From Mycoplasma sp. CAG:877 (lineage in GTDB: Bacteria; Bacillota_I; Bacilli_A; RF39; UBA660): 64,000 nucleotides of DNA. Under the pieces are notes generated by a model, which made no database searches, was not told the origin of the DNA, and saw only the letters and a list, made by a program, of their open reading frames with translations. The position numbers and the translations under genes were made by a program. Below are positions 14,800 to 37,902 of this stretch, one piece after another (position 1 is the first letter of the stretch; every line of letters starts with the position of its first letter). The DNA lies in the NCBI GenBank assembly GCA_000433455.1, contig HF992500.1, positions 32,293 to 96,292 on the forward strand, in the 5' to 3' direction.

Positions 14800-16070
14800 T
14801 ATTTCACTCTCCTTATTTTCTTTGTTATTCTATCTAGTTTGCTATTTACTTTTTTAGGTATATTAAGTTCAAGTTCTTTATATAATCTTTGATTATCTTC
14901 ATACAATGCCTTATTTTCTTGTTCTAACTTCTTAATTTGTTTTATATAAGCATTGGCACTATCAATTATCCCAATTGGATTTAAATCATCTTTAGTCATT
15001 TCTGGTATATCTAAAAAGATACTATTTTCAATTGATAAATTTTCTTTAATATATTTGTAATTTTCTTCTACAATTTCTACTAATTCTTGTTCACTATATT
15101 TAAATAATTCATTCTCATTACTATCAACATTTATTCCCGAAAAGTTTTCCTCCACTATCTTCTTTATATTTTCAGGTGTAACAAAAATCATATTTCCTTT
15201 ATATCCAGATATAATTGTTGGCTTTTTAGATGCTACTGATTCTAAGGCACAACGATCGACTCCTAATAAAATGTCTGCTTTTTCTATATATGGTTTTACA
15301 TTGGAAACGGCTCCTATAAATTCGATATTTTCCTCTTTAAACATTTCCTTTATTTCAGAAAGTATTTCTCCATCGCCAAGTATAGTTAGTCTGACATCTT
15401 TATTATGTGTTTCTTTTATATGCCTAAAGATTTTAACTGCAGTATATATTGATTCTCTTTTATGTTCACATACTCTTCCAAACCAAAGTAAGTTATCAAA
15501 CTTCATATTTATTGTTTTAACTTTTTTATCCTTATAATCTGAAAAGTCTAAACTATTTCTGACTACCATATATTTGGAATCTGGTAATTCAAATAAATAT
15601 TGATGTTCTTCTTTAACATTTTATGTTATAGCAATTATTTTTGATGCACATTGAAAATATATTGGAAATAATGTTAAAAAAATTCTGTAATGGGCCATAA
15701 ACCACTCGCAACTTCCTGGAATTATATTATGTAAATAAGCCACATATCTAATATTATTTCTTAAGGCGATAGGAAGAATATATGGTATGCATGGAAATTG
15801 ATGTACATATATAAAATCAATCTTTTTAGAAAGTATTATTCTTTCTAATTTCAATATTTCTTCCCAATCAACAGCAGTATCTTGAAGCTTAAAGTCAAAT
15901 TCAATCCATTCAATGTTTTTCTTTCCTTTTAGCTTCTCCCGTAATATACCATCTCTTGAGAGAATATAACATTTTATTCCTCTTCTATTAAATTCATTAA
16001 CTTGCGTTAAGGTAAAAGTTTCAACTCCACCAATTCCTAATTGCTCTAAACAAACAAGTGCATTTTTCAT
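14799..16070 (-). pseudogene. GT4 family glycosyltransferase interrupted by a single in-frame TAA (15623..15621)
   Basis: Track ORFs 15621..16070 (GT4 N-domain, LGIGGVETFTLTQV) and 14799..15569 (GT4 C-domain) lie in the same frame. They are separated by exactly 17 sense codons after one TAA: ...IIAIT*NVKEEHQYLFELPDSKYMVVRNSLDF... Confidence 0.75.
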
Positions 16071-18472
16071 TTTTTTCTCCTTTTTCTAATATCTAACTTA
16101 CTTTTTATATTGGCTAGTTTATTTATAAACCTATATCTTTTACTATTACTTATATTTGTTAATTTTTGAGATAGCATCATGATTTTTTCATTTGCTAATT
16201 CTAATTTCTGGGTATTATATGCTTGTTCTAACAATTTAAATGTATTTTCATTTATTTCACTAAAAATTATATTTCTTTCTATTGGTCTTTTCACTGAGGT
16301 TTTTAAAGCTTGATTATATTCTTCTATAGACTTATATTTTGTTTCTTGTAATAAGAACTTATTTTTAACTTTATTAAAAAGCTTAGCACCTTTATCTGTA
16401 TTTATGATTACTGCTGATGTTCCTTTTTTATCAAAGAATTCTTTATGAACATTATATATTCCCCAATAATCACCAAGTATTATGTCAGCAACATTATTTT
16501 TTCCTTTTGCTGGACAGTTATAACAACTTTCTCTTAATATGTAATTGTCTACAAATAAAGACATCATTGGATCGTCTGCAAACTTATAGGCCTTATTTAT
16601 TCTTTTTGTTTTGTATTCAATACTAGCTACATCCCAACCATTAACTTTACTTTTAAAATTTATTTCTTCTATTTCTGTTTCAAAATTTTTTTCTATTTCT
16701 TTTACTCTTTTTTCTACAATATTATCGTTAATTACACCGTGACAAATAACACTTACTGTATATAATTTAGGATATTCTTTGGCCAAGTAAGTTTTTAGTG
16801 CAAGTATTTGACAAGGAGTTCCTGAGAATAATACCTTTTTATTTTCTCCTAAGTCTTTTTTTACATCATTAAAAATTGTTTTGACGTTACTTTGTGAATA
16901 CTTTGAGCCTTGTATTTTTTTGATATCATTAACATTGTCTATTCTAATATGTTCAACTTTTAAAGATGATATTGTTGCTCCATAGACGATACCTTGATGA
17001 GTTAGTATTTCTTTAGCTAAATAGTAGAATACTCCACCAGATGAACTTGATTGTAAAATATCTTTTTCTTTTGACTTTGCTGCATAACACTCTAAAGCTT
17101 TTGTTTGCTGGATATTTTCAATATTACGGCAACATTTTTTTCTACATAGACCACAATTTATACATTTTTTTAAATCTATTTTTGGATATAAAAATCCTTC
17201 TTCATTTTTAACCATTGTAATAGCATTTTTAGGACAGACATTTGCACAAACTTGGCAACCTACACAATCTGTTTTTTTACAAATTTTTTCTTTTTCTAGT
17301 GTTTCTAGTCTTGAACACATATTCTCATATAGCTGTTGTGATTCTTTAATAATTATTAGCATCTTCTCTTTTAGAATTTTTCTAATGTTATTTTGATTTT
17401 TGTTTAGATAATCGAATTTTTCAATTAATGAATCTTTATTTATATCTTCTATTGGTAAAACATAATCTTTGTAGTTTCCAAAGATGTCTTCAGCAATTCC
17501 TCTTGATTTTACGCTATATCCAAGTACTAAGGTTGGGACACAGGTTGAATAAGCGGCAATTGAGGCATGAGTTCTAGCTGCTATTAGTAAACTACATTTA
17601 GAGATAATGTATTTAAGTTCTTTACAATCGTAATTACCTCTTTCTAAATATAATCTTTTTTCGTTTTTATAATCTTCTGCTATTCTATCTAGAATTTTAT
17701 AGTCACTTACTTCTTCTACCATAACGTGTGGTATTAAGCATATTGAATAGTCAGTTTTTTTTAAAATGTAATTTATTAATTCCTTTATATCGTTATAATT
17801 TTCTTCTGACTTTATTGTTAAAGGACTTAAGTTCAGACCAACTATCTTTCTATTTTTATACCATGAGTTTAATTTTACTTCTTTCTTTTTTAGAGAAAAA
17901 GCAGGTTCTGGTATTAACATAAGTTTTTCTTCTGGTATATATTTCTTTATAGCATTATAGCTAATCTTTTCTCTAAGCATCAATAAATCGTATTTTTTTA
18001 AGTTTGTTATAAGATCTAAATCCGTTATTTCATCAAATAGTGAGGCACCAAATAGTACTGTTTTTTTACCTAGTTGTTTTGCTTTGGTGTTAATAGAATA
18101 AATCCACTCATTAACACCATAACAGTAGTTATCACCACCTACATGAATTGCAAGATCTGACTTTTCTAATTCTTTAACTACATCTCTTTGATAAAGCAAT
18201 TCGTAGTTATTATAATCAAAAGGCATATTTTGATACTTTTCTAATTTCTTTTTTTCGCTCTCAGTGAACTCATCATAATTTTGTCTATGATGGTTTATGT
18301 ATTTTTTAATTTTTTCTTTTTTTATTTTCTTATCATTTTCGTAGTCAAATGTTGCTAAAACAATTTCCGCTTCATTAATTTGCTCTATGACAGAGTCAAC
18401 AATAGCTTCACAACCTTTATTTTGCAGTGAACCTATTCCATATAATAATATTTTTTTCTTTTCTTTATTCAT
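16067..18472 (-). CDS. Fusion protein: polysaccharide pyruvyl transferase domain + 2x[4Fe-4S] ferredoxin + FrhB/FdhB-like (F420-hydrogenase beta-like) flavoprotein domain
   Basis: aa 1-390 look pyruvyl-transferase-like (GSLQNKGCEAI, HVGGDNYCYG). aa ~400-450 carry two Cys clusters, CVGCQVCANVCP and CINCGLCRKKC. aa ~455-720 look FrhB-like (GGVFYYLA..., GTPCQILALK, ESCYNCP). Confidence 0.75.
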   Translation of the reverse strand: MNKEKKKILLYGIGSLQNKGCEAIVDSVIEQINEAEIVLATFDYENDKKIKKEKIKKYINHHRQNYDEFTESEKKKLEKYQNMPFDYNNYELLYQRDVVKELEKSDLAIHVGGDNYCYGVNEWIYSINTKAKQLGKKTVLFGASLFDEITDLDLITNLKKYDLLMLREKISYNAIKKYIPEEKLMLIPEPAFSLKKKEVKLNSWYKNRKIVGLNLSPLTIKSEENYNDIKELINYILKKTDYSICLIPHVMVEEVSDYKILDRIAEDYKNEKRLYLERGNYDCKELKYIISKCSLLIAARTHASIAAYSTCVPTLVLGYSVKSRGIAEDIFGNYKDYVLPIEDINKDSLIEKFDYLNKNQNNIRKILKEKMLIIIKESQQLYENMCSRLETLEKEKICKKTDCVGCQVCANVCPKNAITMVKNEEGFLYPKIDLKKCINCGLCRKKCCRNIENIQQTKALECYAAKSKEKDILQSSSSGGVFYYLAKEILTHQGIVYGATISSLKVEHIRIDNVNDIKKIQGSKYSQSNVKTIFNDVKKDLGENKKVLFSGTPCQILALKTYLAKEYPKLYTVSVICHGVINDNIVEKRVKEIEKNFETEIEEINFKSKVNGWDVASIEYKTKRINKAYKFADDPMMSLFVDNYILRESCYNCPAKGKNNVADIILGDYWGIYNVHKEFFDKKGTSAVIINTDKGAKLFNKVKNKFLLQETKYKSIEEYNQALKTSVKRPIERNIIFSEINENTFKLLEQAYNTQKLELANEKIMMLSQKLTNISNSKRYRFINKLANIKSKLDIRKRRKK

Positions 18473-18572: not shown

Positions 18573-18599
18573 TAAAAAAAAGAATTTTTTACAATTCTT
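18573..18599 (-). terminator. Terminator overlapping the stop codon of the ABC-2 permease gene
   Basis: Stem aagaatt / aattctt, followed on the minus strand by an 8-nt U-run. It splits the locus into at least two transcription units. Confidence 0.6.
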
Positions 18600-19377
18600 C
18601 TACAAATGACTTTTCTAATTTTTTAAATATTAGATAGCCAATTACTAGTATTACTACTGATAATAAGCCCCATAATAATATCATCATCATATCAGGAAGT
18701 GTATGATAATAAAGAATGGAACGATATCCTTCTATTAATTGAGCCATAGGATTTATCTTTAGTACCCATTGGAATTTTTCTGGTAACATATCAGCTTTAT
18801 AAATTACTGGAGTTGCATAGAAAGCTAACATCATTACAACACTTACAAAGTGATCTACATCTCTTACAAATACTGTGATTGCTGATAAGATAAAGTTAAA
18901 TCCTAAAGTTATGATATATTGAATTAATATTAATAATGGTAATAGTAGGACGTGTACTGAGAAGCCTACTCCTGAGAATATTATAAATATAAAAACGATT
19001 ATCATTGTTATTAAAAAGTTTATTAATTGACTTGTTGTTATTGAGATTGGAATTATTTCTCTTGGAAAATAAACTTTCTTTAAGATGTTACCATTAGCAA
19101 CAACACAACCTGTACCAGTTTGGATAGCAGTTGTAAAGAAGTTCCATGGTATTAAGGCTACTATCATAAAAATAGTATAATTATCTACATCTACTCTTAA
19201 GATATATGGAAATACAAATGAGTATACAGCTAGCATTAGTAATGGATTTAAGAATGTCCAAATTACTCCTAGCCATGAACCTTTATATTTACCTCTTATT
19301 TCTTTTTTAATATTTGTTTTTAATAATTCTCTATAGTTATATAATTCTTTAAATACGTTCATTATAATCACCCGCAC
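18589..19377 (-). CDS. ABC-2 type polysaccharide/teichoic-acid export permease (TagG/Wzm-like)
   Basis: 262 aa with six TM helices. N-terminal YRELLKTNIKKEIRGKYKGSWLGVIWTFLNP is typical of ABC-2 exporters. Overlaps the upstream ATPase gene. Confidence 0.85.
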   Translation of the reverse strand: MRVIIMNVFKELYNYRELLKTNIKKEIRGKYKGSWLGVIWTFLNPLLMLAVYSFVFPYILRVDVDNYTIFMIVALIPWNFFTTAIQTGTGCVVANGNILKKVYFPREIIPISITTSQLINFLITMIIVFIFIIFSGVGFSVHVLLLPLLILIQYIITLGFNFILSAITVFVRDVDHFVSVVMMLAFYATPVIYKADMLPEKFQWVLKINPMAQLIEGYRSILYYHTLPDMMMILLWGLLSVVILVIGYLIFKKLEKSFVEEL

Positions 19378-20111
19378 ACTTTCAAGTACTCTTCAAGTAC
19401 TTCTTTGACTTGACCATCTCTATGAACTTCTCCTTCATATAGCCAAATTGCTCTATCACAGAATCTTCTAACTTGGTCCATACTATGAGTAACAATAACG
19501 ATTGTCTTACCAGCATTTTTTAATTCTATTAGTTTATTGAAACATTTATCTTGGAAATGTTGATCTCCAACTGCTAGTATTTCATCAATCAATAGGATAT
19601 CTGCTTCAACGTTTATAGCAACAGAGAAAGCAAGTCGCATATACATTCCTGATGAGTATGTTCTAACTGGATTATCAATAAATTCTTCTAATTCAGAAAA
19701 TTCAATTATTTGATCTAGTTTCTTATCTATCTCTTCTTTTGTTAACCCAAAGATAGAGGCATTGAAATAAATATTTTCTCTACCAGTAAAGTCATCATGG
19801 AATCCAGCACCTAATTCAAGTAAGGATGTTAATTTACCATCTTTGGTTATTTTTCCTTTTGTTGGATAAATGATTCTATTCATTAACTTTAGTAATGTTG
19901 ATTTACCTGAACCATTTGTTCCTATTAACGCTACACTTTCACCCTTTTTTATTTCTATATTAATGTCCTTTAAAACATGTAATACATTATTTTTACTTCT
20001 ATTTTTCTTAGAAAAGAATAATATTTTTTCTTTTAAAGTATTAGCTTTATCATAATAAAGTTTGAAGTCTTTTGAAACATGTGTAACTTTTATCGCTACG
20101 TCTTTTTCCAC
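19368..20111 (-). CDS. ABC exporter ATP-binding protein (TagH/Wzt-like, no C-terminal carbohydrate-binding extension)
   Basis: Walker A GTNGSGKST, signature SSGMYMRLAF, Walker B ILLIDE. GTG start. Confidence 0.9.
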   Translation of the reverse strand: MEKDVAIKVTHVSKDFKLYYDKANTLKEKILFFSKKNRSKNNVLHVLKDINIEIKKGESVALIGTNGSGKSTLLKLMNRIIYPTKGKITKDGKLTSLLELGAGFHDDFTGRENIYFNASIFGLTKEEIDKKLDQIIEFSELEEFIDNPVRTYSSGMYMRLAFSVAINVEADILLIDEILAVGDQHFQDKCFNKLIELKNAGKTIVIVTHSMDQVRRFCDRAIWLYEGEVHRDGQVKEVLEEYLKVCG

Positions 20112-20185: not shown

Positions 20186-20923
20186 TCACTTTGATGGTTG
20201 TACAATGTACTTCATTCTTTTAGCTGTAACGACTTTATAACCTTCAGGTGACAAGTGTAGACCATCTATTGTGTACTCTAAGTTTAGATTGCCATCAGAG
20301 TCGGTTAATTCATCATACATATCAATGTATTCATAGTTATATGTTTTAGCATTTATTTCTAATTCTTTATTTATTTCCATTATTTTTTTATTTTCTCTTT
20401 TACCAACCATCCAATCTATAACTACATCATTATCTGTTTTATTATTTACAGGATAAATTGACTCAATATATAGTTTAGCATTTGGTCTGTTTTTATGTAT
20501 TTCTCTAGCTATTTTTAATATTCCATATACAATTTCATCACTACTTGAACCAGTTAGATTATTAGTTCCTATCAATAGGAATACTTTAGTAGGATTGTAT
20601 TTATATAAGTCATCTTCAAGATTACCATATACTCCGCCTACAGAGTTTCCACTATGTCCAGAATTTACAACTGGTATGTCAGGATAAAAAGTATTTACAT
20701 TATAAAAGTCAGTAATAGAATCACCAATAAAGACAATATTTTCATATTTATAATCTATCTTTTTATCTTTATCTGTTTTATTACTCTTTGGATTTTCTAT
20801 ACCTGTATATGGTTCCATTCTTTCTATTAATATTAGTCCTAGAGATATGATTGTTATAACTATTAAAAAAATAACTAACCTGATAATTATTTTGTAGTTT
20901 TTATCTGTTGTATCGGTTATCAT
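20186..20923 (-). CDS. Membrane-anchored SGNH/GDSL hydrolase-acyltransferase domain protein
   Basis: N-terminal TM segment. Block I FIGDSITD, block III GTNNL, block V DGLHLSPEGY. Confidence 0.85.
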   Translation of the reverse strand: MITDTTDKNYKIIIRLVIFLIVITIISLGLILIERMEPYTGIENPKSNKTDKDKKIDYKYENIVFIGDSITDFYNVNTFYPDIPVVNSGHSGNSVGGVYGNLEDDLYKYNPTKVFLLIGTNNLTGSSSDEIVYGILKIAREIHKNRPNAKLYIESIYPVNNKTDNDVVIDWMVGKRENKKIMEINKELEINAKTYNYEYIDMYDELTDSDGNLNLEYTIDGLHLSPEGYKVVTAKRMKYIVQPSK

Positions 20924-20925
20924 TT

Positions 20926-21978
20926 TTAATCAATCTCCTTTTTTATTTTGTTAAGAATTGTACTGTTTTTTAATTTACTTGTAACATAGGCATAACTTTT
21001 TTCTAGGAAAATTGCTATAATGGTTGCTAAGACAAAGTTTGTTACTAACATACAAATAAACTTTATTATACTATTATGTAGTGGAAAACGAGCAATTATT
21101 ACGTATAGTAATGATGATGATATTCCTTGAGCAAAATAGTAAAATATAGCATTTTTACCTATATAGTTTATTTTATTATTATCAATTATTTTTAGTTTAT
21201 CTTTTAAATACCAAGTTAGCATAATAGAAAGATTTGAAAAGATTAGATATGGAACACTTGGTGGGAATTTTATATTTTGAATACTATTTATACCAATGTT
21301 TAGGAAATAAAATGTAAGTAATAATATGAGAATGTTACTGGTTTCTAAAATAATTAATTTTTTAGATGAGGTTATCTTTTTCTCATGTGAGATATATCCT
21401 AGTAAATATATAAATGAATAGAATGTTATATATTGTAAACGTACCATTGAACCATTTTGGGCACTTACGTATAAAAATAACATAAGAGTAAATGGAAGTA
21501 TTATTTTAGTTAAAGTTTTGTAGGCATCTTTCTTTAAATAGTAGTTGACGCTACAGATTACTATTGAACATATTACAGATACTGCAATATACATTTTCAT
21601 AAACCAAATTGAACCAGCTACGATTGGTAATTCTTTTGGTTCTTTAAATGTATAAGCTAGCCATGATATTACTTCCGATAGATTTATATGACTTTTGAAA
21701 AAGACTAGTAGTATGATTGTAAAAAATACTAAAAAGTATAACCACTTTTTCCACTGACCTATTATTCCTTTTATATTTTTAATTATAGAGTTAACATAAT
21801 TAAATGATAATCCGGCTAAAAACATAAACACTGGAACATCAACTAGTAAGGTTAGACTACTAAACCATCTTGGTAGATATCCTTCTCCAGACCACCAAGC
21901 AGTATGAATTATAATTATAGAGATGGTTGCTAAACCTCTTAAAAAATCAATATTATTATTTCTAGTTGCTTTTTTCAT
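20926..21978 (-). CDS. Acyltransferase family 3 (AT3) membrane protein
   Basis: About 10 TM helices. N-terminal NNIDFLRGLATISIIIIHTAWW is the AT3 signature. Confidence 0.85.
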   Translation of the reverse strand: MKKATRNNNIDFLRGLATISIIIIHTAWWSGEGYLPRWFSSLTLLVDVPVFMFLAGLSFNYVNSIIKNIKGIIGQWKKWLYFLVFFTIILLVFFKSHINLSEVISWLAYTFKEPKELPIVAGSIWFMKMYIAVSVICSIVICSVNYYLKKDAYKTLTKIILPFTLMLFLYVSAQNGSMVRLQYITFYSFIYLLGYISHEKKITSSKKLIILETSNILILLLTFYFLNIGINSIQNIKFPPSVPYLIFSNLSIMLTWYLKDKLKIIDNNKINYIGKNAIFYYFAQGISSSLLYVIIARFPLHNSIIKFICMLVTNFVLATIIAIFLEKSYAYVTSKLKNSTILNKIKKEID

Positions 21979-21994
21979 TTTAACTCTCCTACTA

Positions 21995-22558
21995 CTATTT
22001 TACATTTATTTCTTCTACACTTTCTTTTTTTACAAGATAAGCATGTTCTGCTATTTTCATAAGTGGCAAATCAGACATTGAATCTGAGTAAAAGCCCGTT
22101 ATTTTTTTATTATTAAATTCTTCATTAAAGCGATGAACTTTTTCTTCACCATAGCAATTTTTACCTAAGAATGTGCCTGTTTTCTTACTTACTTTACTAG
22201 CAATAATTTTTATTTTTAATTTTTTCTCTAATGGTTTTAGTAAAAACTCAGGAGATGCAGATATAATTACATCACTTGTTTTACTTTGTTTTTTATACCA
22301 AGTTTTTATTTTTACTATTTTTTGTTTCCAAAATACTTCTACAGTCTTATCAATATTATCTATTTTTTTTACAAATGAAAAGAATTGTGATTTAAAATAT
22401 TCTTTATCTTTTATTTTTAATTTATATAAAATCATAGCAAATACTTGTTTTGGTAATAGTAAAATAATTGATTTTTTTCTTTTTAAACAAAATAGGTAAA
22501 AATCAATTGACGAATCTCCATCATATATTGTTTTATCAAAATCATAAACATTTAGCAT
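21995..22558 (-). CDS. HAD-IB family phosphatase
   Basis: Motif I VYDFDKTIYDG, motif II IISASP, motif III Lys (GKNCYGEEK), motif IV YSDSMSDLPL. Confidence 0.75.
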   Translation of the reverse strand: MLNVYDFDKTIYDGDSSIDFYLFCLKRKKSIILLLPKQVFAMILYKLKIKDKEYFKSQFFSFVKKIDNIDKTVEVFWKQKIVKIKTWYKKQSKTSDVIISASPEFLLKPLEKKLKIKIIASKVSKKTGTFLGKNCYGEEKVHRFNEEFNNKKITGFYSDSMSDLPLMKIAEHAYLVKKESVEEINVK

Positions 22559-22645
22559 AATAGATTTTTTTCCTCCTATAAGTTCTATCTTTGTATTTAT
22601 CGACGACTTATTTATTTCTTTGGTAGTTCGATATAACTATTTACA

Positions 22646-22654
22646 ATTATAGCA
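22646..22654 (-). promoter_or_regulatory. Extended -10 element (TGCTATAAT) in the 184-nt gap between the UbiA-like and HAD genes
   Basis: Read on the minus strand. No convincing -35. Confidence 0.35.
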
Positions 22655-22742
22655 TATTAAGTAATTATTTCATAAAAAAATGTCGTTTCTTTGACCTTTT
22701 TTAAGCTATTTAACATAGTATTTTGACAAAGTTATAGGCTTA

Positions 22743-23624
22743 TTATAACAAGTACAATAAGCCTCCCATTACTAAAACATATAAAATTACGATCGCTATT
22801 AGTTTTTTGTCTGATAAAACCACTTCGATAGGATCACCGTGTGAGTTTCCTTCAATGTTTAGACTATATAGCTGTAATATTATCATTACTAGTGGTATAG
22901 TCCAGAATAAGTAATCGTTACCTATTCTTGCTACTGTTGCTGGATCAACACACCATAATGTATAAGATACTATAGCTAGTCCTAAGCAAACGTACATATT
23001 CTTGTCTAAGAATTCTTTATTGTATAAACTTAGAACTTTTCTACTCTTGTTACCATTTTTAATAATTTCATTTCTTCTTTTACCAAAGCCTAAGTAGAAT
23101 GATCCAAAGATAATCATTAAGTATAAGAATTTAGAAACTTCTACATCTACAACTACTCCACCATACATAACACGTAAAACGAAACCTGATACTAGTATTA
23201 CGACATCGATGATAGGTTCATTCTTTAACTTTTTACTATATAAAATATTTAGAATTAAGTAAATTAATGGAATTAATATTACAAAGATATTTTTAGTAGT
23301 CTTGAAGAAGAAGACCATTATAATAGCAATTACGATAGCTAGTAAAAGCATTACTATATAGGCTTGCTTTTTACTAACCTCTCCTGATGCTAGAGGTCTA
23401 AATTTTTTTACAGGATGTAATTTATCTTTTTCAATATCACTCATATCATTTAGAATATATACTATTGATGATGTAAAACAGAATACTATAAAGGCAAGTA
23501 AACATGTTAATAAATAATTTAGATTAAAAAGATTTAAACTAAAGAAGATTGGTAAGAAAATTAAACCATTTTTTAACCAATGTTTTGCTCTAATAAGTTT
23601 AATGTACTTTTTCATTTGTTTCAA
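22743..23624 (-). CDS. UbiA-superfamily polyprenyl-phosphate phosphoribosyltransferase-like protein (DPPR synthase / Rv3806c-like)
   Basis: Eight to nine TM helices. LNDMSDIEKDKLHPVKKFRPLASGEVS matches the NDxxDxxxD..HPxKxxRPxAxG region I recall from decaprenyl-phosphate 5-phosphoribosyltransferase. Confidence 0.75.
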   Translation of the reverse strand: MKQMKKYIKLIRAKHWLKNGLIFLPIFFSLNLFNLNYLLTCLLAFIVFCFTSSIVYILNDMSDIEKDKLHPVKKFRPLASGEVSKKQAYIVMLLLAIVIAIIMVFFFKTTKNIFVILIPLIYLILNILYSKKLKNEPIIDVVILVSGFVLRVMYGGVVVDVEVSKFLYLMIIFGSFYLGFGKRRNEIIKNGNKSRKVLSLYNKEFLDKNMYVCLGLAIVSYTLWCVDPATVARIGNDYLFWTIPLVMIILQLYSLNIEGNSHGDPIEVVLSDKKLIAIVILYVLVMGGLLYLL

Positions 23625-25350
23625 CTCCTATTCTCCAGCTATATTTATAGCGCATATTTTCTGTGGTAATGTCTTCTTTGATGGTATAGTTTACACCATT
23701 GTCATTTAAGGTATAGTAATAACCATATAAGTCATGCATACCAGTAAGTTTTAATTTTAAGTCTTTTGTATTTTTCATTTCTTTTATATCTTTTGATATC
23801 TGGCTAAATGTTTCTAGTTGTTTTACATTAATATAAGCATAAGCTAAAGTGTTAAGACATAGTAGTAATAATGATAAAATAGTTATGGCTTTATTTACTT
23901 TTGTTTCATTATATTTTCTTATATATACTAAGGAAAGAATTGCTCCTACTGGGAATAAGTATAGTTGAGGAACATATCTTGCCCACCAGTTTTCACCTAC
24001 TAAAATTGAACTTATGATAATTGCTATTGCTGGTAAATAAATGTATGGAGCAAAAGATTTTTCTTTTCTTATTATTTTTACAACTGAATATATAAGTATT
24101 GGGGTTGTAATTATTACAATTAAGGCAAATAATGGACCAAATCCACCTATTCTTACATCGGGTGCATATAATTCACCAATTTCTGATTTGTATACTTTTA
24201 TTGGTAATTTTAATTGAGGTTCCCTATCTCCATAGACAACATTTTCTGTTTTAGAAAATAAAGATACAACAAATTTTTCGACCATATTTTTATTTTTAAA
24301 AGATTTAGGTTGCATTGTAGTTATAATATCAACTTTATCTTTACCAATGATTGGATATAATGGATTATGATGATCTATAGTGTTTTTTACATAAGAGTTT
24401 AAACCTACAAAGAAGATTGCTGTTACAAAGACAATTATAAAGTTAATAGTAACTCTTTTAAAGATTGTAACAAAGTCTTTATCTTTACGATATTTTATTA
24501 ACCAGTAAAAATAGAATGTTGCGGCTATAACACCTGAACATAATAGACCGGTATATTTAATATTAGTAAAGATTGTACAAATTGATACTAGACATAACCA
24601 AATCCAAATATTTGTCTTTTCTTTAGGATTTACTAGAAATAATAGTAAGATTTCTATTAGGAATAAAATTCCCATAATACCATCAACATAGTATGTAAAG
24701 AATTGAGCTAAAACAATAGGATTTAATACTACTAAACTGGATATTATATAAGACCATTTTTTATCTAGAATTTTTCTTAGAATGTTAAAATTAATAATGA
24801 ATAACATAATAGATAAAATTAGGGTTATACATTTACCACTTTCAATATTTCCTGTCATATTATAAATTGTTGCTGCTACAATCCAAGTGGCTTTTGGATA
24901 ATGTTCAATCCATAAATCTATTTTTACGCCTTTTTCTATTTTTACAACATTATCATTATTTTCTTGGAACTTTCTACTAGTTTCATACATTGGATTCCAA
25001 CCATTTTTTATAAAAGCTATAGCAGTTTTATGATAAGAATTACCATCAACTGTTAAATCGTAAGTCTTATTATAAATAAATGGTACAACTAATAATATGA
25101 ATAAATATATTCCAATTACAATTAGGATATCTTTTGTCTTTTCACTCTTTTTATATAGTAATACGATAATTGGAATTGTTATACTTAATATTTGAATAAG
25201 GCTTAAAGTATTTGCTAGTTTTAATAATTCAAATGCTGTAAATAGTGATAAAACTAGTAAAAAATAACCAGCCAACATTACAAATAAAAGCATAGAGTTA
25301 TTTAATTTGAACTCTTTATTCTTCTTTTCTTTTTCTCTTTTTATTTTCAT
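23599..25350 (-). CDS. Large polytopic membrane protein, candidate GT-C fold glycosyltransferase
   Basis: 583 aa with about 12 TM helices, an acidic first loop (YDLTVDGNSYHK) and a ~80-aa soluble C-terminus. Its 3' end overlaps the UbiA-like gene by 26 nt. The fold assignment is inference. Confidence 0.45.
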   Translation of the reverse strand: MKIKREKEKKNKEFKLNNSMLLFVMLAGYFLLVLSLFTAFELLKLANTLSLIQILSITIPIIVLLYKKSEKTKDILIVIGIYLFILLVVPFIYNKTYDLTVDGNSYHKTAIAFIKNGWNPMYETSRKFQENNDNVVKIEKGVKIDLWIEHYPKATWIVAATIYNMTGNIESGKCITLILSIMLFIINFNILRKILDKKWSYIISSLVVLNPIVLAQFFTYYVDGIMGILFLIEILLLFLVNPKEKTNIWIWLCLVSICTIFTNIKYTGLLCSGVIAATFYFYWLIKYRKDKDFVTIFKRVTINFIIVFVTAIFFVGLNSYVKNTIDHHNPLYPIIGKDKVDIITTMQPKSFKNKNMVEKFVVSLFSKTENVVYGDREPQLKLPIKVYKSEIGELYAPDVRIGGFGPLFALIVIITTPILIYSVVKIIRKEKSFAPYIYLPAIAIIISSILVGENWWARYVPQLYLFPVGAILSLVYIRKYNETKVNKAITILSLLLLCLNTLAYAYINVKQLETFSQISKDIKEMKNTKDLKLKLTGMHDLYGYYYTLNDNGVNYTIKEDITTENMRYKYSWRIGVETNEKVH

Positions 25351-25357
25351 GTTTTTC

Positions 25358-26302
25358 CTACTTTCTATATATTTTACAATATAATTTTGTCAAGAATTTA
25401 CTTTTTTCTATTGTTCTTTTTAAGATACTTCTATTTTTAAAATATTTATTATTTTTATAATCTGGTACTTCTTTTTCTAGATAAGAAAATGCTTCATCAA
25501 TGAAGTCCAAGCCAACATTTTTATCTTTTTGATTTCTTTGTTGAATTGTGTAATTAGTAATTATTCTAACTGTTAATTTATTTATTTCTTCTTGTAAATA
25601 GGCTTCATTTTTAGTATTTTTTCTAATTAAATCAATTATTTTTAAAATATCGAAGCAACGTTTATCTCTAACTGTTGTTTCACTATTACCATGAATTAAA
25701 TAATAATTTAGATACTCATCAACTTTAATTATTTTTCCTGCTTTAGAGAATGCCTCTATTACAAATGGAGCATCTTCATATTTTAAGTTTTCAACAAATT
25801 TAATCTTATTTTTGGTAATTAGTTCTTTCTTATATAATTTGTTCCATGGTGCTAGATTTATTTCATTAACTAGACTCGGAGTTTTTCTAAGTGTTGTTGG
25901 TTTAAAACTTAGTAATTTTATTTTTTCTTCTTCTCCAGAATCATATATTTTATAAAAATCACAGATTGCTAAGTCAGCAGCAGCTTTTTCAGCGTTTTTA
26001 TAAAGAATTTCACAGGCATTATTTTTAAGATAATCGTCACTATCTAAGAACATAATGTACTTACCTGTTGCTTTTTCAATACCAAAGTTTCTTGTTTTAC
26101 CAATACCTTGATTTTTATTTTTGAAATACTTGATCCGGCTATCTTTATATGACTTTATTATTTCTTCGGTTTTATCCGTTGAACCATCATTTACTAGGAT
26201 AAACTCTAACTCTTTTTTTGTTTGATTAATTAGTGAATCAATACACTTGTTTAAATACTTTTCAGCATTATAAATTGGAACAATAACACTTATATCTACC
26301 AT
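25358..26302 (-). CDS. GT2 family glycosyltransferase
   Basis: Motifs ISVIVPIYNAEKYL, ILVNDGSTD and MFLDSDD. Confidence 0.9.
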   Translation of the reverse strand: MVDISVIVPIYNAEKYLNKCIDSLINQTKKELEFILVNDGSTDKTEEIIKSYKDSRIKYFKNKNQGIGKTRNFGIEKATGKYIMFLDSDDYLKNNACEILYKNAEKAAADLAICDFYKIYDSGEEEKIKLLSFKPTTLRKTPSLVNEINLAPWNKLYKKELITKNKIKFVENLKYEDAPFVIEAFSKAGKIIKVDEYLNYYLIHGNSETTVRDKRCFDILKIIDLIRKNTKNEAYLQEEINKLTVRIITNYTIQQRNQKDKNVGLDFIDEAFSYLEKEVPDYKNNKYFKNRSILKRTIEKSKFLTKLYCKIYRK

Positions 26303-26307
26303 AAAAC

Positions 26308-27228
26308 TTACCTCTTTATTAATTTATAATAAACCTTTGGACTTATTTTTAATAATACTCTCTTTACTTTTCTAGGAAGTGTGTCTGTTAAAAGATTATC
26401 AAATACTTTGTTGTTTTTTAGTTTTTTTAGATATATTCGATAGTCTTTATTGTTTAGTTCAGTTATTTTTAATATCATACAGTTAGCAATATAACTTTTG
26501 AAGATTTTCAAATCACCTTTTATTTCTTTGGATTCTTCTAGTAGATTGTTGTAGTGATAATACATATCGTCTACTTTTCTTTTTGTCCAGTCATAGTTTT
26601 TATTATTCATAATACTACCACTACGTCTATAGTAATCATAACCAATATATTTGATTGAGTTTACTTTTTTAGCTTTTAGAATTATTAAAGGCACTAAGCC
26701 AAAATCTTCATGAACAGTTCCTTTCTTAAAGGCAAACTTTTCTTTTTTGTAATAACTCATTTTATAAGCGTAACACCAACAACTATCTATGAAATGAAAT
26801 TTTACTATTTTTTCAAAAGCTTTTTTACCAGTTAAATTTTCAAATGTTTCTTCTTCATATTTTGTAATTTCTTTGTTATCATTAACAGTTTGAATTTGAA
26901 ATCTTATTACGTCCGGATTATTTTCAGTTGATTTATCTAGTTCTTTAAGCAAATCTTTTTCCCAGTAATCATCACTATCTAGAAAAAGTAAGTATTGTCC
27001 GTGAGCTTTTTTTACGCCAATATTTCTAGCTTCACTTACACCTTCATGGGCAGATTTGATTATAGTTAGATCGTATTTTTTTGCTTTTTCAATACTTTTA
27101 TCTGTACAACCATCATCTACTAGTATTACCTCAAAATCTTTAAACGATTGATTAAAAACACTATCTAGACATCTTTCTATGTATTCTTCAACATTATATA
27201 CAGGTATTATTATACTGAACTTTGGCAT
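26308..27228 (-). CDS. GT2 family glycosyltransferase
   Basis: Motifs FSIIIPVYNVEEYI, ILVDDGCTD and LFLDSDD. Confidence 0.9.
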   Translation of the reverse strand: MPKFSIIIPVYNVEEYIERCLDSVFNQSFKDFEVILVDDGCTDKSIEKAKKYDLTIIKSAHEGVSEARNIGVKKAHGQYLLFLDSDDYWEKDLLKELDKSTENNPDVIRFQIQTVNDNKEITKYEEETFENLTGKKAFEKIVKFHFIDSCWCYAYKMSYYKKEKFAFKKGTVHEDFGLVPLIILKAKKVNSIKYIGYDYYRRSGSIMNNKNYDWTKRKVDDMYYHYNNLLEESKEIKGDLKIFKSYIANCMILKITELNNKDYRIYLKKLKNNKVFDNLLTDTLPRKVKRVLLKISPKVYYKLIKR

Positions 27229-29543
27229 TATATCACCCCATCAAATAATTTTTCAAATTCAACTATCCTTGACTTTTGAATTTCTTTAATATCTATAGTT
27301 TTTGTTTTTCTAGGATTTTTCAACTCATTTTCAACATCTTTTAACATTTTTTTCTCATCTGTAGAAATTATTGTAGCATAGTCTTTTCCTATATTAATAG
27401 AATCATCTGAAACATCTATCGTCGTTAGAATTTTTTTGTTTAGAGTAATTGCTTCTAGATAAGTAACCGGAAATCCTTCATAATCAGATGTTAAAATTAT
27501 ATAGTCGGCTAGACCGATGTATGGATAGGGGTTTTTCTTTTGCCCTACGAATATCACTTGTTTTGATAAGTTACTTTTGATGGTTAGATCCTCATACATT
27601 TTTCTATCTGGTCCATCACCTACTATTAATAGATTTACATCAGGTAAATTTTTTACTAAGTTTATTGCTCTTGATACTTTCTTAGAAGAGTCATCTAAGC
27701 GACCAATAAAGACAAATAACTTTTTATTTTTAGGATGTTTTTCAGATATTTTTTCAGTACTTAGTTTTAGTATTTTATCTGGGTTAATAAAGTTATTTAG
27801 AACTAGACATTTGTCTTTTAGATTTGGATATATTTTTAAGAAGTCTTTCATAGCTTCATTAGCAACAAAGATTATTTTTCTATATTCAGTTATATGTCTA
27901 TTATCAAAGAAGTTCATAAACTCTTTCTTATCCTTATATATATACTTGTAATTACTATGAACATAAAAAGCATTATTAGTTGATGCAGTCCTTGCAATTT
28001 TATCAGATGACAAACTATATGTTGTGTAGCAACAACTAAAATCATAATTATGATAGTTTAGTATAGAATAATTTAACTTACGTAAGAAGTTTAGTGCTTT
28101 TCGAATAATAACATTATTATTAGTAGAAACTTTTAACTCCTCTACTTTAACACTTTTATTTACATCTTTTAGAAGTACGCCTTCTTTTTTCTCCATAATT
28201 AAAGTTACATTATATTTATTGTAATTAATATTATTTAATAAATTAATAATAGCAGTTTCTATTCCACCTATTTTTAAGTTGTTTATAGCAAATAATAAGT
28301 CTTTCTTTTCTCTTGGAAATAAATAAAGAAGTAAAATTATTATTAAAAGACTTACTGATGGAGATGTTATTATATGACCAGTAAATAGTGATAAGAATAA
28401 TACTAGTAAGATACTTACATTTAACATGTAAGAGTTAAAATCTAGGCTCTTTTTAGTAGTAGTTGACTTTATTAAGATATAAATATATACAGAGAAGAAA
28501 ATTATAAAACCAATAAGACCATGATTAAAATAAATATCTAGATAGTCCATTTCTATTAGTTTAGCTTGTTTATTACTATCATAATAACCTATTCCAAATA
28601 ATTTATTAGTTATATTAGAATTATCGTAAGTATATTTTCGATCAGTAAAGAAAGTTACACGTTGGCTAAAGATAAAATGATCAATTAAATTACCATTATC
28701 AATAATATCAGTTACATCTTTTATTTTTAAGTAATCTAGATGGACTTTGATATTTTTATAAAAGTTAGTTTTAGGTATTGCTACTAAAAGAGATACTATA
28801 CCAATTACTATTACTAAAAAAGAGGTAAAAATAGTTTTATACTTTTTATTTTTAAAGGACTTGATAATAATCCAAATAAAAGTCATAGCGATTGTGATTA
28901 ATAAAGATAGTAATGGTGTTTTAGTACCAATAGTTAGTATTACTACTAAGTATAGTAATGTATAAATGGTTTTTAAAATAATACCTTTTTTATCATTAGT
29001 TTTATTCATAAATATAATAAATATTATAGGAGTTAAAATAGAAATAATACCAGATATTTCATTGGCAGAATTATAGTAACCTAGAGTACCTGACTTAGTT
29101 ATTTCGTAACTTTTAAAACCAACATGTAAAATCATTGGAATAAAAATACAAATTAAATAAAGAGATAAAATTGTGAATAAAGTTAATTTACTTATTCTTA
29201 TTTCATCTTTTAATTCATATAAAGATATTAATAATAATGGAAAATAAAATACTCTTAGAAGACCTTGTACTTCACCAAATAAATTACTTTTACCAAGTAC
29301 TAGTAAATAAATAATACTATAGATAAAAAATACTAAGTAATATATTAGGGGTACTTTCTTCTTATATATAAAAGTAGTTACTAAGACTATAAAGAATAAA
29401 AATAACATTCTAATAATAATACCTAGAGTTAAATTTAGGTTAAATTCATGTAAACAAATACCAGTAATAAGATCTAATATTGGTTGAATTAAAATAAAGA
29501 TACTTATTATTTTACTTAAATTATTTTTTATTGTTTTACTCAT
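27228..29543 (-). CDS. Fusion: O-antigen ligase/polymerase-like (Wzy_C) membrane domain + C-terminal GT4 glycosyltransferase
   Basis: aa 1-410 have about 11 TM helices with EMDYLDIYFNHGLIGFIIF, a Wzy_C-like loop. aa 415-771 are GT4 (LKIGGIETAIINLLN, FIGRLDDSSKK, SDYEGFPVTYLEAITLNKKILTT). Confidence 0.8.
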   Translation of the reverse strand: MSKTIKNNLSKIISIFILIQPILDLITGICLHEFNLNLTLGIIIRMLFLFFIVLVTTFIYKKKVPLIYYLVFFIYSIIYLLVLGKSNLFGEVQGLLRVFYFPLLLISLYELKDEIRISKLTLFTILSLYLICIFIPMILHVGFKSYEITKSGTLGYYNSANEISGIISILTPIIFIIFMNKTNDKKGIILKTIYTLLYLVVILTIGTKTPLLSLLITIAMTFIWIIIKSFKNKKYKTIFTSFLVIVIGIVSLLVAIPKTNFYKNIKVHLDYLKIKDVTDIIDNGNLIDHFIFSQRVTFFTDRKYTYDNSNITNKLFGIGYYDSNKQAKLIEMDYLDIYFNHGLIGFIIFFSVYIYILIKSTTTKKSLDFNSYMLNVSILLVLFLSLFTGHIITSPSVSLLIIILLLYLFPREKKDLLFAINNLKIGGIETAIINLLNNINYNKYNVTLIMEKKEGVLLKDVNKSVKVEELKVSTNNNVIIRKALNFLRKLNYSILNYHNYDFSCCYTTYSLSSDKIARTASTNNAFYVHSNYKYIYKDKKEFMNFFDNRHITEYRKIIFVANEAMKDFLKIYPNLKDKCLVLNNFINPDKILKLSTEKISEKHPKNKKLFVFIGRLDDSSKKVSRAINLVKNLPDVNLLIVGDGPDRKMYEDLTIKSNLSKQVIFVGQKKNPYPYIGLADYIILTSDYEGFPVTYLEAITLNKKILTTIDVSDDSINIGKDYATIISTDEKKMLKDVENELKNPRKTKTIDIKEIQKSRIVEFEKLFDGVI

Positions 29544-29752
29544 TTTAATATACCTCTTACCGTATGTGGATTTTTATACTTATTGATGTAAATAGATTAA
29601 TGTATTAAACATCCTCTATTTACATAATATCATTTATGAATTGGTTAGTCAAATATTGATATATAGACATTCTTTGACATATTAAGGGTTTGTTAGTGTT
29701 TGTATTTTACAATATTTATTATATAATTATATAAGAAGATGAGGTGGTTTAT

Positions 29753-32062: not shown

Positions 32063-32087
32063 AAAAATAAAAAGAGCCTTAGGCTCT
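32063..32087 (-). terminator. Terminator of the glucosaminidase gene
   Basis: Stem agagcc / ggctct with loop tta, followed on the minus strand by a long U-rich run. Confidence 0.6.
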
Positions 32088-35993: not shown

Positions 35994-36027
35994 AGTAGTT
36001 GTATAATTTGGATATTTGGAGGCTTAT

Positions 36028-37902
36028 ATGACTAAAGAAAAAGATACTAAAAAGAAACCAATATTAAAGATCATTATTTTGATACTATCTATTATTGCAG
36101 TACTGAGTAGTTGTTTTGCAATATATGAAATATTTATGTTAGCAACAATAGAAAACACTATTAGATATATAGTTATGGGAATCTTGGTACTACTCGATAT
36201 ATCAATTATATTTAAGACTAAAGGTATTTTAAAGAGGCGGCCTAAGAATAAACATTCTAAAAGAATTGGTTATATTATATTTATGATTTTATATACTATT
36301 ATTTGTATTATAGTTGGTTCTATTATATTTTACTTATATGGTAAGTTAAGTAATATGAATAAAAATACTGTTATCTACTCTTCTAGTGTTGTTGTTATGG
36401 CTAATAATGAGGCTAGTAGTATTAATGATATTAAAAGTTATAAGATTGGTGTTTTAGATAAGACTAATAAAAATTCTCCTGATGGTTATATAATTCCTCA
36501 AGAAATTATTAAAGAGAATAAATTATATGATGATAATGAATTAGTTGATTATAGTGATTATCAAACTATGGTTACTGATTTATATGCTAAGAGTATTGAT
36601 GCAATTATCTTACCTACTAATTATCCTTCTATGTTTTCTTCTATTAGTGGATATGAAGAGATTGGTACAGATACAAAGATAATTGTTACTAAAGAAAAGA
36701 AGATGAAAAAGTCAGCAACTAGTGTAGTTGAAAGAGAATCAACTGGTAAGCAAGTTACTGAACCATTTACAATGTTACTTATGGGTATTGATTCTACAGA
36801 TGAAGTACTTGAAAAGAATGCAGTTGCGAATGGTGATACATTAATAGTTGTTACATTTAATCCTAAGACTTTGAATGCTACAATGTTATCTATACCAAGA
36901 GATAGTTATGTACCTATTGCTTGTTGGTCTAATAAAGCGGAAAATAAAATTACACATGCTGCTGGATATGGTAATGATTGTATGATGAATACTATTGAAC
37001 AATACTTAGATATTAATATTGATTATTATGCAAAAATTAATTTTAAAGGATTGGTTAAATTAGTCGATGCTGTTGGTGGTGTTGATATAAATGTTGAACA
37101 AACTCTTTGTACTGATGATTCTTCTCGTGGTGGAGATATTTGTATTAATCCAGGTTATCAAACTTTAAATGGTGAACAAGCTTTAGTTTATGCTAGAAAT
37201 AGAAAGGCTTTAGTTAATGGTGACTTTGGTCGTAATCAACATCAACAAGAAATTGTTATTGCTTTAGCTAATAAGATTAAAACAGTTAATAGTGTTTCTA
37301 AGTTTATGGAGATTTTAGATACAGTTTCTAATAGTTTAGATACTAATTTAACTACTCAACAAATGTTATCTTTCTATAATATAATAAAAGATATAATTAA
37401 GAAGAGTTTATCTTCAGATGAAGCTGATTTAATTAATATTCAACAATTATATTTATCTGGTAATGGTCAAATGATTTATGATGAGAGAATGAGAATGGTT
37501 TTATATGATTTCATTCCTAATGAAAATAGTCGTAAAGATATAGTTCAAGCTATGAAAGAAAACTTAGAATTAGTTGAACATACTCCTATTACAGAATTTA
37601 GTTTTTCAATTAATAGTCCTTATGAAAAAGAAGTTATTGGTAAAGGACCTTATAGAAGTTCTAGTTTATATAATTTAGTTCCTAACTTTATAGGTGTTAC
37701 AGAAGCTCAAGCAAGAACTATGGCTAGTAGAGTTGGATTATCTGTTAAGTTTGATGGAGATTCAACTGGTGTAGTTACAGCTCAAAGTTATCCTGCTTCT
37801 AAACGTGTTGATTTAATCAAGGGTAGTATTACATTAACATTAACTAATAGTAGTAAAAAACCTACTGTTAAAGATGATGATAAAAAAGGCGATGACAAGT
37901 AA
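36028..37902 (+). CDS. LCP (LytR-CpsA-Psr) family glycopolymer-peptidoglycan ligase with a C-terminal PASTA domain
   Basis: Two to three N-terminal TM helices. LCP core LLMGIDS...GDTLIVVTFNPKTLNATMLSIPRDSYV...ITHAAGYG...ALVYARNRK. C-terminal PASTA-like VPNFIGVTEAQARTMASRVGLSVKFDGDSTGVVTAQSYPA. ATG 36028 is preceded by TGGAGG. Confidence 0.85.
   Translation: MTKEKDTKKKPILKIIILILSIIAVLSSCFAIYEIFMLATIENTIRYIVMGILVLLDISIIFKTKGILKRRPKNKHSKRIGYIIFMILYTIICIIVGSIIFYLYGKLSNMNKNTVIYSSSVVVMANNEASSINDIKSYKIGVLDKTNKNSPDGYIIPQEIIKENKLYDDNELVDYSDYQTMVTDLYAKSIDAIILPTNYPSMFSSISGYEEIGTDTKIIVTKEKKMKKSATSVVERESTGKQVTEPFTMLLMGIDSTDEVLEKNAVANGDTLIVVTFNPKTLNATMLSIPRDSYVPIACWSNKAENKITHAAGYGNDCMMNTIEQYLDINIDYYAKINFKGLVKLVDAVGGVDINVEQTLCTDDSSRGGDICINPGYQTLNGEQALVYARNRKALVNGDFGRNQHQQEIVIALANKIKTVNSVSKFMEILDTVSNSLDTNLTTQQMLSFYNIIKDIIKKSLSSDEADLINIQQLYLSGNGQMIYDERMRMVLYDFIPNENSRKDIVQAMKENLELVEHTPITEFSFSINSPYEKEVIGKGPYRSSSLYNLVPNFIGVTEAQARTMASRVGLSVKFDGDSTGVVTAQSYPASKRVDLIKGSITLTLTNSSKKPTVKDDDKKGDDK

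Follow-up and report, generated by a model that had tools for sequence, protein, structure and literature searches.

A glycosylation pathway that uses a pentofuranose linked to polyprenyl phosphate was shown biochemically for the Citrobacter youngae O antigen; a UbiA-type synthase and a HAD "PRP" phosphatase act in it together with a flippase and a glycosyltransferase of GT-C type (Kelly et al. 2024, PMC11127046). In that system ORF15, a HAD "PRP" domain fused to the UbiA-type synthase, makes polyprenyl-phosphate-ribofuranose (polyprenyl-P-Ribf) from phosphoribosyl pyrophosphate (PRPP), ORF14 is a MATE flippase, ORF12 is the GT-C enzyme and founder of family GT136, and epimerases are optional (PMC11127046). 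The supplement of the same paper lists candidate systems in Bacillus sp. NP157, a Gram-positive, and in one phage whose PRP is a separate protein, transporters of MATE or SMR type, and a CDD placement of ORF12 in the EpsG family (PMC11127046); Gram-positive candidates were also raised in the accompanying commentary. Full-text literature searches returned no later work and no experimental characterisation of this pathway type in Bacillota. Here, three adjacent minus-strand genes were analysed in a 64,000-nt stretch of contig HF992500.1 from Mycoplasma sp. CAG:877 (forward-strand positions 32,293 to 96,292; hereafter the window, whose own numbering is used throughout). They encode a 583-aa membrane protein, a UbiA-superfamily protein and a HAD-IB phosphatase. 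The three had been singled out in an earlier reading of the DNA letters without database searches (the sequence-only reading), which proposed a lipid-linked ribofuranose donor for decoration of a surface polymer and took the chemistry to be new to low-GC Gram-positives. On novelty, that reading was overtaken by the pathway published in 2024 with Gram-positive candidates named, and it stands in so far as no Bacillota characterisation was found.

The three genes are best explained as a module for polyprenyl-phosphate-pentofuranose glycosylation of the kind that Kelly et al. 2024 reported, located within an ABC-transporter-dependent wall-polysaccharide operon and working through a five-step scheme with D-ribofuranose as the sugar. 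A probability of roughly 0.7 was assigned to this reading. All three open reading frames (ORFs) were present on the minus strand at the coordinates given below.

The candidate donor synthase is encoded at 22743..23624 (-) and comprises 293 aa when counted from a TTG codon. It was assigned as a UbiA-superfamily polyprenyl-phosphate 5-phosphoribosyltransferase (PPPRS/DPPRS-like) by NCBIfam model NF008977 and PDB entry 8j8j. Pfam UbiA was matched at 8e-22, and the top NCBIfam models were those of decaprenyl-phosphate phosphoribosyltransferase, NF008977 (3.8e-64) and NF008978 (7.7e-61), with the HAD-UbiA fusion model NF006088 at 3.9e-50. The best model of a quinone, heme, archaeal-lipid or other prenyltransferase reached only 1.6e-16 or worse. 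With M. tuberculosis Rv3806c (8j8j) the protein aligned over its full length (residues 7-288) at E 2e-36, and the next UbiA structure followed at 1.6e-5. By these comparisons it groups with the DPPR synthases rather than with MenA, UbiA or CyoE. The sequence-only reading, which had called it Rv3806c-like and unlike the MenA, UbiA and heme enzymes, was thus borne out (about 1e-61 to 1e-64 for the NCBIfam models in favour, 1.6e-16 or worse for the others).

The catalytic signature of this class is retained. The protein contains LNDMSDIEKDKLHPVKKFRPLASGEVS, and the motifs NDxxDxxxD..HPxKxxRP and KRxxE are both kept. Residues N59, D60, D63, D67, H70, K73, R76, P77, G81, K182, R183 and E186 were conserved in at least 95% of 57 UbiA homologues. 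In Citrobacter ORF15, alanine replacements were made at N247, D248, D251, D255, R366 and E369; activity in vitro depended on the Asn and on all three Asp, D251A kept some activity in vivo, and the R366A and E369A proteins stayed active (PMC11127046). The conserved Asn/Asp and Arg/Glu residues of the window protein correspond to ORF15 N247/D248/D251/D255 and R366/E369, respectively. Translation likely starts at the ATG at 23615, which is preceded by AGGAG 9 nt upstream, rather than at the TTG at 23624. From this ATG the overlap with the gene for the 583-aa protein is 17 nt, which replaces the 26 nt given earlier.

The stand-alone HAD-IB phosphatase (187 aa, 21995..22558 (-); Pfam HAD 2e-18, TIGR01490 3e-25) is proposed to be the phosphoribose 5-phosphatase (PRP) for polyprenyl-P-ribose-5-P. 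Its catalytic residues D6/D8/T10, S100/S102, K140 and D159/D163, which make up all four HAD motifs, were present in at least 90% of 45 homologues, and it weakly matched the HAD part of fusion model NF006088 (E 0.0027). The description of a downstream HAD-IB gene with complete motifs was therefore accurate, with the correction that a spacer of 184 nt follows ubiA. This AT-rich spacer (22559..22742 (-)) contains an extended -10-like element, TGCTATAAT, and a GGAGG ribosome-binding site, whereas in related loci the gap between ubiA and the HAD gene is 0-25 nt. The spacer may hold an internal promoter that serves the HAD gene and the genes for acetylation and export. When the operon was scanned for promoters and terminators, matches in this AT-rich DNA were not above shuffled expectation.

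The third gene, at 23599..25350 (-), encodes a 583-aa polytopic membrane protein, a predicted GT-C-fold glycosyltransferase and the proposed pentofuranosyltransferase. The protein itself had no Pfam, NCBIfam or PDB sequence matches, two family profiles searched against PDB also gave nothing meaningful, and its homologues are all annotated as hypothetical. Pfam scans of 25 and 45 family members produced only sporadic sub-threshold matches (PMT_2, DUF6056, STT3, EpsG, Wzy_C), with two of the 45 matching EpsG weakly (E 0.0024). An AlphaFold2 model computed with 25 homologues had a pLDDT of 85.7 and a pTM of 0.90. When the model was compared with PDB by Foldseek, the confident matches (probability ~1.0) were GT-C enzymes only: AftA (8if8), which ranked first, STT3 (6s7o), ArnT (5f15), AglB, ALG9/ALG12, EmbB, Pmt, PimE and AftD. 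A Wzy/WaaL enzyme was rejected (WaaL 7tpg, probability 0.08, TM-score 0.19; Wzy_C matches sporadic and weak), as was a transporter (Foldseek probability at most 0.1). Structure prediction and fold comparison thus agreed with the sequence-only reading of a GT-C-like protein.

About 12-13 hydrophobic segments were found in the 583-aa protein, in line with the roughly 12 transmembrane (TM) segments counted earlier, and the model has ~13 TM helices. The Lys-rich N-terminus indicates a cytoplasmic start, and the charge distribution (positive-inside rule) puts loop 94-167 outside. This is the first large outside loop and carries the conserved motif YDxxxDGNxYHK. An acidic first loop had been described for the protein; a conserved acidic outside loop (D102) is present, located after TM3 and not after TM1. 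D102, Y106, Y151, K265, R400 and R458 (the last within WWARY) were invariant in 45 diverse family members. In the proposed scheme D102 is the likely catalytic base, and the pattern of invariant residues would fit a catalytic base together with phosphate-binding residues. The C-terminal domain of the model is small (~50 aa, mixed alpha/beta). From the conserved acidic loop residue and the structural similarity, membership of the GT-C-fold superfamily is predicted. The family is large, with 2,899 representatives of 50%-identity clusters at E <=1e-3 and 1,648 at E <=1e-30.

For the locus survey, one genome per species was scanned with the 583-aa protein, and 79 loci with a homologue were obtained. 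They belong to Bacilli, Erysipelotrichaceae and "Tenericutes" gut metagenome-assembled genomes (MAGs), Clostridia, Saccharimonadales and other Patescibacteria, Flavobacteriales and Rhizobiales; the cultured Clostridia among them include strains of Butyrivibrio, Pseudobutyrivibrio, Lachnospiraceae and Lawsonibacter. An uncultured Bacilli MAG from Hadza gut metagenomes (CAKPMY010000011.1, locus L001) encodes a protein identical to the 583-aa ORF and, adjoining it, an identical UbiA ORF. A UbiA homologue was found in the fetched flank of the GT-C homologue in 59 of the 79 loci, always on the same strand, and in 47 loci, across distant phyla, the two were at most 400 nt apart. HAD was present in 44 of the 79. 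The association between the GT-C family and UbiA is far from chance.

Domain fusions link the three proteins further. Nine ORFs (747-774 aa) carry HAD at the N-terminus of a GT-C family member. HAD is also fused to two or three further polytopic membrane domains that lack a Pfam model (size classes 695, 681 and ~700 aa; one DUF6056-like, one weakly PMT_2-like), and to GtrA (loci L016, L043 and L052). The fusion partners are thus of at least four kinds (examples: L002:7135-9222, L035:11928-13973, L014:10548-12656, L016:7275-8303 and L052:7000-7980). GtrA lies beside the cassette or is fused to HAD in ~13 related loci. In L013 and L015 the GT2 gene nearest the GT-C gene is fused to it. In the Rhizobiales locus L070 a GT-C family member is located next to an ORF15-type HAD-UbiA fusion (NF006088, 542 bits), a direct link between the family and synthases of the published kind. 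Many related loci have two or three GT-C-like paralogues around one ubiA gene.

The five steps would proceed as follows. At the cytoplasmic face, the UbiA protein would move 5-phosphoribose from PRPP to undecaprenyl phosphate (C55-P), giving C55-P-Ribf-5-P, as its homology to Rv3806c and its conserved catalytic residues suggest. The HAD-IB enzyme would then strip the 5-phosphate to leave C55-P-ribofuranose, a role to which gene linkage and domain fusions point. In the third step the lipid-linked sugar would be flipped outward; relatives encode a GtrA-family protein, and here the flippase would be encoded outside the window. Fourth, the 583-aa enzyme, whose fold is taken from the model, would put the pentofuranose on a polymer presumably built by the neighbouring GT2/GT4 enzymes and exported by Wzm/Wzt to the outer face of the membrane. 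In the last step, the decorated and probably O-acetylated polymer would be joined to the wall by an LytR-CpsA-Psr (LCP) enzyme.

The locus polymer is the expected acceptor because of the operon context and the GT2-GT-C fusions. A rather improbable alternative keeps C55-P-pentofuranose as donor and has the GT-C enzyme glycosylate something else, such as lipoteichoic acid, a surface protein or peptidoglycan, or polymerise pentofuranosyl chains like the mycobacterial Emb/Aft enzymes. It would suit the best structural match, AftA, and the matches to EmbB and AftD; the paralogues in many related loci hint at more than one transfer step, and LtaS-like, sortase and pilin genes occur in the window. 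However, a single GT-C of the 583-aa family is present in the window; its position between the polymer GT2 and exporter genes, with the fusions to GT2 in L013 and L015, ties it to the locus polymer.

Several results weigh against the proposed module. The UbiA protein scored just below the NCBIfam equivalog cutoffs (216.9 bits versus 234 for NF008977, 205.8 versus 207 for NF008978). Foldseek TM-scores of the GT-C matches were modest, 0.36-0.45, with E-values near 1e-3; scores of this size are usual between GT-C families. Pfam scans, which took in part of the window ORFs, showed no flippase of the GtrA, SMR or MATE type, and when all window reading frames of at least 50 aa were searched with a GtrA hidden Markov model (HMM) derived from related loci, the best match reached only E 0.06. 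The inspected part of the genome amounts to 64 kb. For the 583-aa family and for this organism, the pathway is predicted from sequence and structural model. Finally, 20 of the 79 loci lack a UbiA gene; 11 of these end at contig ends, and the other nine have complete flanks with a GT-C homologue and no UbiA gene. The family may therefore not be strictly dedicated to a pentofuranose donor, or the partners may be encoded elsewhere.

These nine loci would also be expected if the adjacency were operonic and not functional, with the GT-C enzyme using another lipid-linked donor (for example a C55-P-hexose made elsewhere) and the UbiA/HAD product serving another purpose. A YfhO-type GT-C in the window likewise means that other lipid-linked sugar systems probably exist. 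Such a coincidence is nevertheless very unlikely, given the adjacency in 47 of 79 loci across distant phyla, the direct fusion of HAD to the GT-C family, the PRPP-specific DPPRS motifs of the UbiA protein and an operon with no GtrB/CsbB-type synthase.

For the identity of the sugar, the evidence is the gene content around the cassette. Neither DprE1/DprE2-like nor GalE-like genes nor a PAP2 phosphatase were found among the window ORFs scanned, so the earlier statement that the window lacks a DprE1/DprE2-like gene holds for these ORFs. Across the 79 related loci no epimerase gene recurred beside the cassette, and the recurrent SDR genes were rml. As the cassette comes without an epimerase gene both here and in most related loci, D-ribofuranose is the simplest choice of sugar, and ribofuranose is our prediction for the product. 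The same pathway could instead deliver arabinofuranose or xylofuranose, if C55-P-ribose were epimerised before flipping by DprE1/DprE2-like or GalE-like enzymes from outside the window. Epimerases diversify the donor in the work of Kelly et al. (PMC11127046), one R. leguminosarum plasmid locus (L083) joins HAD-UbiA, GtrA, an FAD oxidoreductase and an SDR, and the 64 kb inspected leave room for such genes elsewhere. In the published systems, however, epimerase genes are clustered with the module, and the window cassette contains neither an FAD-oxidase nor an SDR gene, nor does one recur next to it in the 79 related loci apart from the rml genes; an epimerised sugar is unlikely. Of the proposal as first made, the donor and its use in polymer decoration are supported by the synthase, HAD and GT-C evidence; the flippase was not found in the 64 kb, and ribofuranose is a prediction.

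PLSDB contains 88 plasmids with a HAD-UbiA fusion, of which 36 come from Rhizobium. The L083 locus on a plasmid of Rhizobium leguminosarum Vaf10 (NZ_CP016289.1, 8019-13764) encodes the HAD-UbiA fusion, GtrA, FAD-binding oxidoreductase and SDR together with a hypothetical 518-aa membrane protein, and resembles a complete module for making a lipid-linked arabinofuranose donor and transferring the sugar. No member of the GT-C family was found in the loci of Burkholderia multivorans and R. leguminosarum (HMM search with --max, E up to 1; hhalign probability <0.1). The membrane proteins beside PPPRS in Lactococcus, R. leguminosarum and B. multivorans have no detectable similarity in sequence to the GT-C family of the window, and the donor module therefore pairs with several GT-C families without detectable sequence similarity to one another. 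A tblastn search of phage gave one match, an unannotated 6.6-kb scaffold (MT837543).

On a wider view, the concept is already published, and no new chemistry or principle is involved. What this locus adds is the tie between pentofuranose donors and a large, so far uncharacterised GT-C family, the fusions of HAD to GT-C and to GtrA, and a window in which the flippase was not found. Somewhat short of even odds, and hence tentatively, we propose that the 583-aa protein represents a large, unannotated GT-C family that is distinct from GT136, is specialised for polyprenyl-phosphate-pentofuranose donors and spans gut Bacilli/Mycoplasmatota-like lineages, Clostridia, Saccharibacteria, Flavobacteriales and Rhizobiales. 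On this proposal the HAD-GT-C and HAD-GtrA fusions would mark a membrane-organised complex for donor synthesis and transfer, the route would be the first to ribofuranosylated wall polysaccharides in Bacillota, and the GT-C family would found a new CAZy family.

If the module works as proposed, a pentofuranose derived from PRPP decorates the wall polysaccharides of many uncultured Bacilli of the gut and of several cultured Clostridia from rumen and gut. Pentofuranose sugars are strongly antigenic and, to our knowledge, absent from host glycans. A large family of "hypothetical" membrane proteins without a Pfam model would gain a function, and the 2024 Citrobacter paradigm would reach Gram-positive wall polymers. 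The prediction is open to testing in cultured carriers, namely Lachnospiraceae bacterium YSB2008, Pseudobutyrivibrio ruminis AD2017, Lawsonibacter sp. LCP25S3_F5, Butyrivibrio sp. MB2005 and Lactococcus cremoris F.2.7.

The cassette lies in a long minus-strand operon (~12.5-29.5 kb (-)), a wall-glycan locus of the ABC-transporter type. The window has a G+C content of ~27%, and a tRNA scan over all 64 kb returned none. In order of transcription the operon encodes an O-antigen-ligase-like/GT4 fusion, two GT2 enzymes, the 583-aa protein, UbiA, HAD, an acyltransferase-3/SGNH pair, a Wzt/Wzm exporter, and a pyruvyltransferase-FrhB fusion with further GT4 and GT2 enzymes. The first gene (27228..29543 (-)) specifies a 771-aa fusion of an O-antigen-ligase-like membrane domain (PF13425, 2.5e-47) and GT4 (Glycos_transf_1, 3e-19); it is the first gene of the conserved operon and is found upstream of the cassette in many Bacilli MAG loci.

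Two cytoplasmic GT2 glycosyltransferases of 314 and 306 aa follow at 25358..27228 (-) (26308-27228 and 25358-26302; Pfam Glycos_transf_2, 4.5e-41 and 2.7e-33). Their translations have no TM segments and no hydrophobic C-termini, and the pair are backbone-building Leloir enzymes. They were also considered as GtrB-like lipid-sugar synthases and rejected, as they have no TM anchor; ubiA is therefore the only lipid-sugar synthase gene beside the GT-C gene.

Downstream of the HAD gene, a 350-aa acyltransferase-3 membrane protein (PF01757, 6.7e-14) and a 245-aa SGNH/GDSL protein (PF13472, 5.5e-19) are encoded at 20186..21978 (-). In this position acyltransferase-3 is kept in 17 related loci and SGNH in 11; the two are probably a two-part O-acetylation system for the exported glycan. 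The Wzm/Wzt-type ABC-2 polysaccharide exporter (18589..20111 (-)) was assigned from translations alone: Walker-type ATPase motifs are present in the 247-aa product, and the other product, of 262 aa, is a polytopic permease. The pair occurs in 24 related loci.

Near the end of the operon, 16067-18472 (-) encodes an 801-aa protein in which a polysaccharide pyruvyltransferase (PF04230) is fused to a 4Fe-4S dicluster and to the N- and C-terminal domains of FrhB/FdhB type. This fusion with its F420-hydrogenase-like redox module is kept at the end of the operon in at least six related loci. It is followed by the N- and C-terminal halves of a GT4 enzyme at 15621-16070 (149 aa, Glyco_transf_4) and 14799-15569 (256 aa, Glycos_transf_1), both (-), in ORFs 51 nt apart. 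Either the GT4 gene at 14799-16070 is frameshifted or split, or the assembly may be at fault here.

Divergent from the glycan operon, 29744-31633 (+) encodes a 629-aa membrane protein with five PASTA domains, a Gly/Asn-rich stretch close to the C-terminus (residues ~535-555) and then a Cys-rich tail; kinase or transpeptidase domains were not detected in it. The divergent arrangement is shared by many related Bacilli MAG loci. A PASTA domain is also present in the LCP family protein at 36016..37902 (+) (PF03816, 1.2e-45), a candidate ligase linking the finished polymer to peptidoglycan. Between these two genes, 32086-35817 (-) encodes a 1243-aa secreted protein with repeated Ig-like segments. 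Elsewhere in the window there are an LtaS-like enzyme, a sortase with pilin and a YfhO protein, and these genes, with the LCP gene, indicate an organism walled in the Gram-positive manner. The YfhO-family protein, a second GT-C enzyme (836 aa, 5829-8339 (-); PF09586, 1.4e-63), has no neighbouring GT2 or GtrA partner. It suggests another lipid-linked-sugar glycosylation system, and the flippase of that system might serve the cassette too.

Compared with the known systems, the cassette is close to that of Citrobacter O1/O2. In both, polyprenyl-phosphoribose would come from a PRPP-dependent synthase of UbiA type whose catalytic motifs are the same, and a 5-phosphatase of the HAD family and an adjoining GT-C-fold transferase complete the set. 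Both lie in a Wzm/Wzt polysaccharide locus (Citrobacter O1 is Wzm/Wzt-dependent), and the Ribf version of the Citrobacter system likewise has no epimerase. In Citrobacter, however, HAD is fused to UbiA, whereas it is a separate protein in the window. The flippase there is of MATE type; in the window no flippase gene was found, and window relatives use GtrA-family proteins. ORF12/GT136 differs in architecture: it has 11 TM helices, its catalytic Asp directly follows TM1, and a beta-rich carbohydrate-binding module (CBM) of ~150 aa forms its C-terminus, whereas the 583-aa model has ~13 TM helices, the loop after TM3 and no large CBM. The acceptor is the O antigen in Citrobacter, while a wall polymer is expected in a Gram-positive-type Bacilli host.

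The mycobacterial decaprenyl-phosphoryl-arabinose pathway (Rv3806c, Rv3807c, DprE1/DprE2, Rv3789, Emb/Aft) has a first enzyme that is homologous over its full length, and it likewise passes from a lipid-linked pentofuranose donor to an extracytoplasmic GT-C enzyme. It differs in its PAP2 phosphatase (Rv3807c), in place of which the window has HAD, and in DprE1/DprE2, which were not found among the window ORFs scanned. The lipid is C50 in mycobacteria and probably C55 in the window organism, and the window has a single GT-C without arabinan-type polymerisation machinery.

In Lactococcus cremoris F.2.7, plasmid pF27D (L081, NZ_CP068515.2; 10599-13718) carries DPPRS, then a stand-alone HAD-IB and then GtrA in an eps cluster, labelled by the NCBI pipeline "decaprenyl-phosphate phosphoribosyltransferase", "HAD-IB family phosphatase" and "GtrA family protein". 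Its UbiA protein is 43% identical to that of the window and passes NF008978 (229 versus 207). Unlike the window, the plasmid-borne cluster is of the Wzx/Wzy type, its GtrA is short (83 aa), and its 462-aa hypothetical membrane protein has no detectable sequence similarity to the window GT-C. Experimental characterisation of this eps module was not found in the literature; the gene set suggests a pentofuranose-containing exopolysaccharide in this dairy Lactococcus.

The GtrABC and CsbB-GtcA-YfhO hexose systems of O antigens and teichoic acids have the same overall layout, in which the lipid-linked sugar is made by a synthase in the cytoplasm and flipped by a small GtrA-type protein, and an extracytoplasmic GT-C then modifies a finished polymer with it. 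They charge the lipid with a GT2 enzyme and a UDP-sugar, whereas in the window a PRPP-dependent UbiA-family enzyme and a phosphatase would do so with a pentofuranose.

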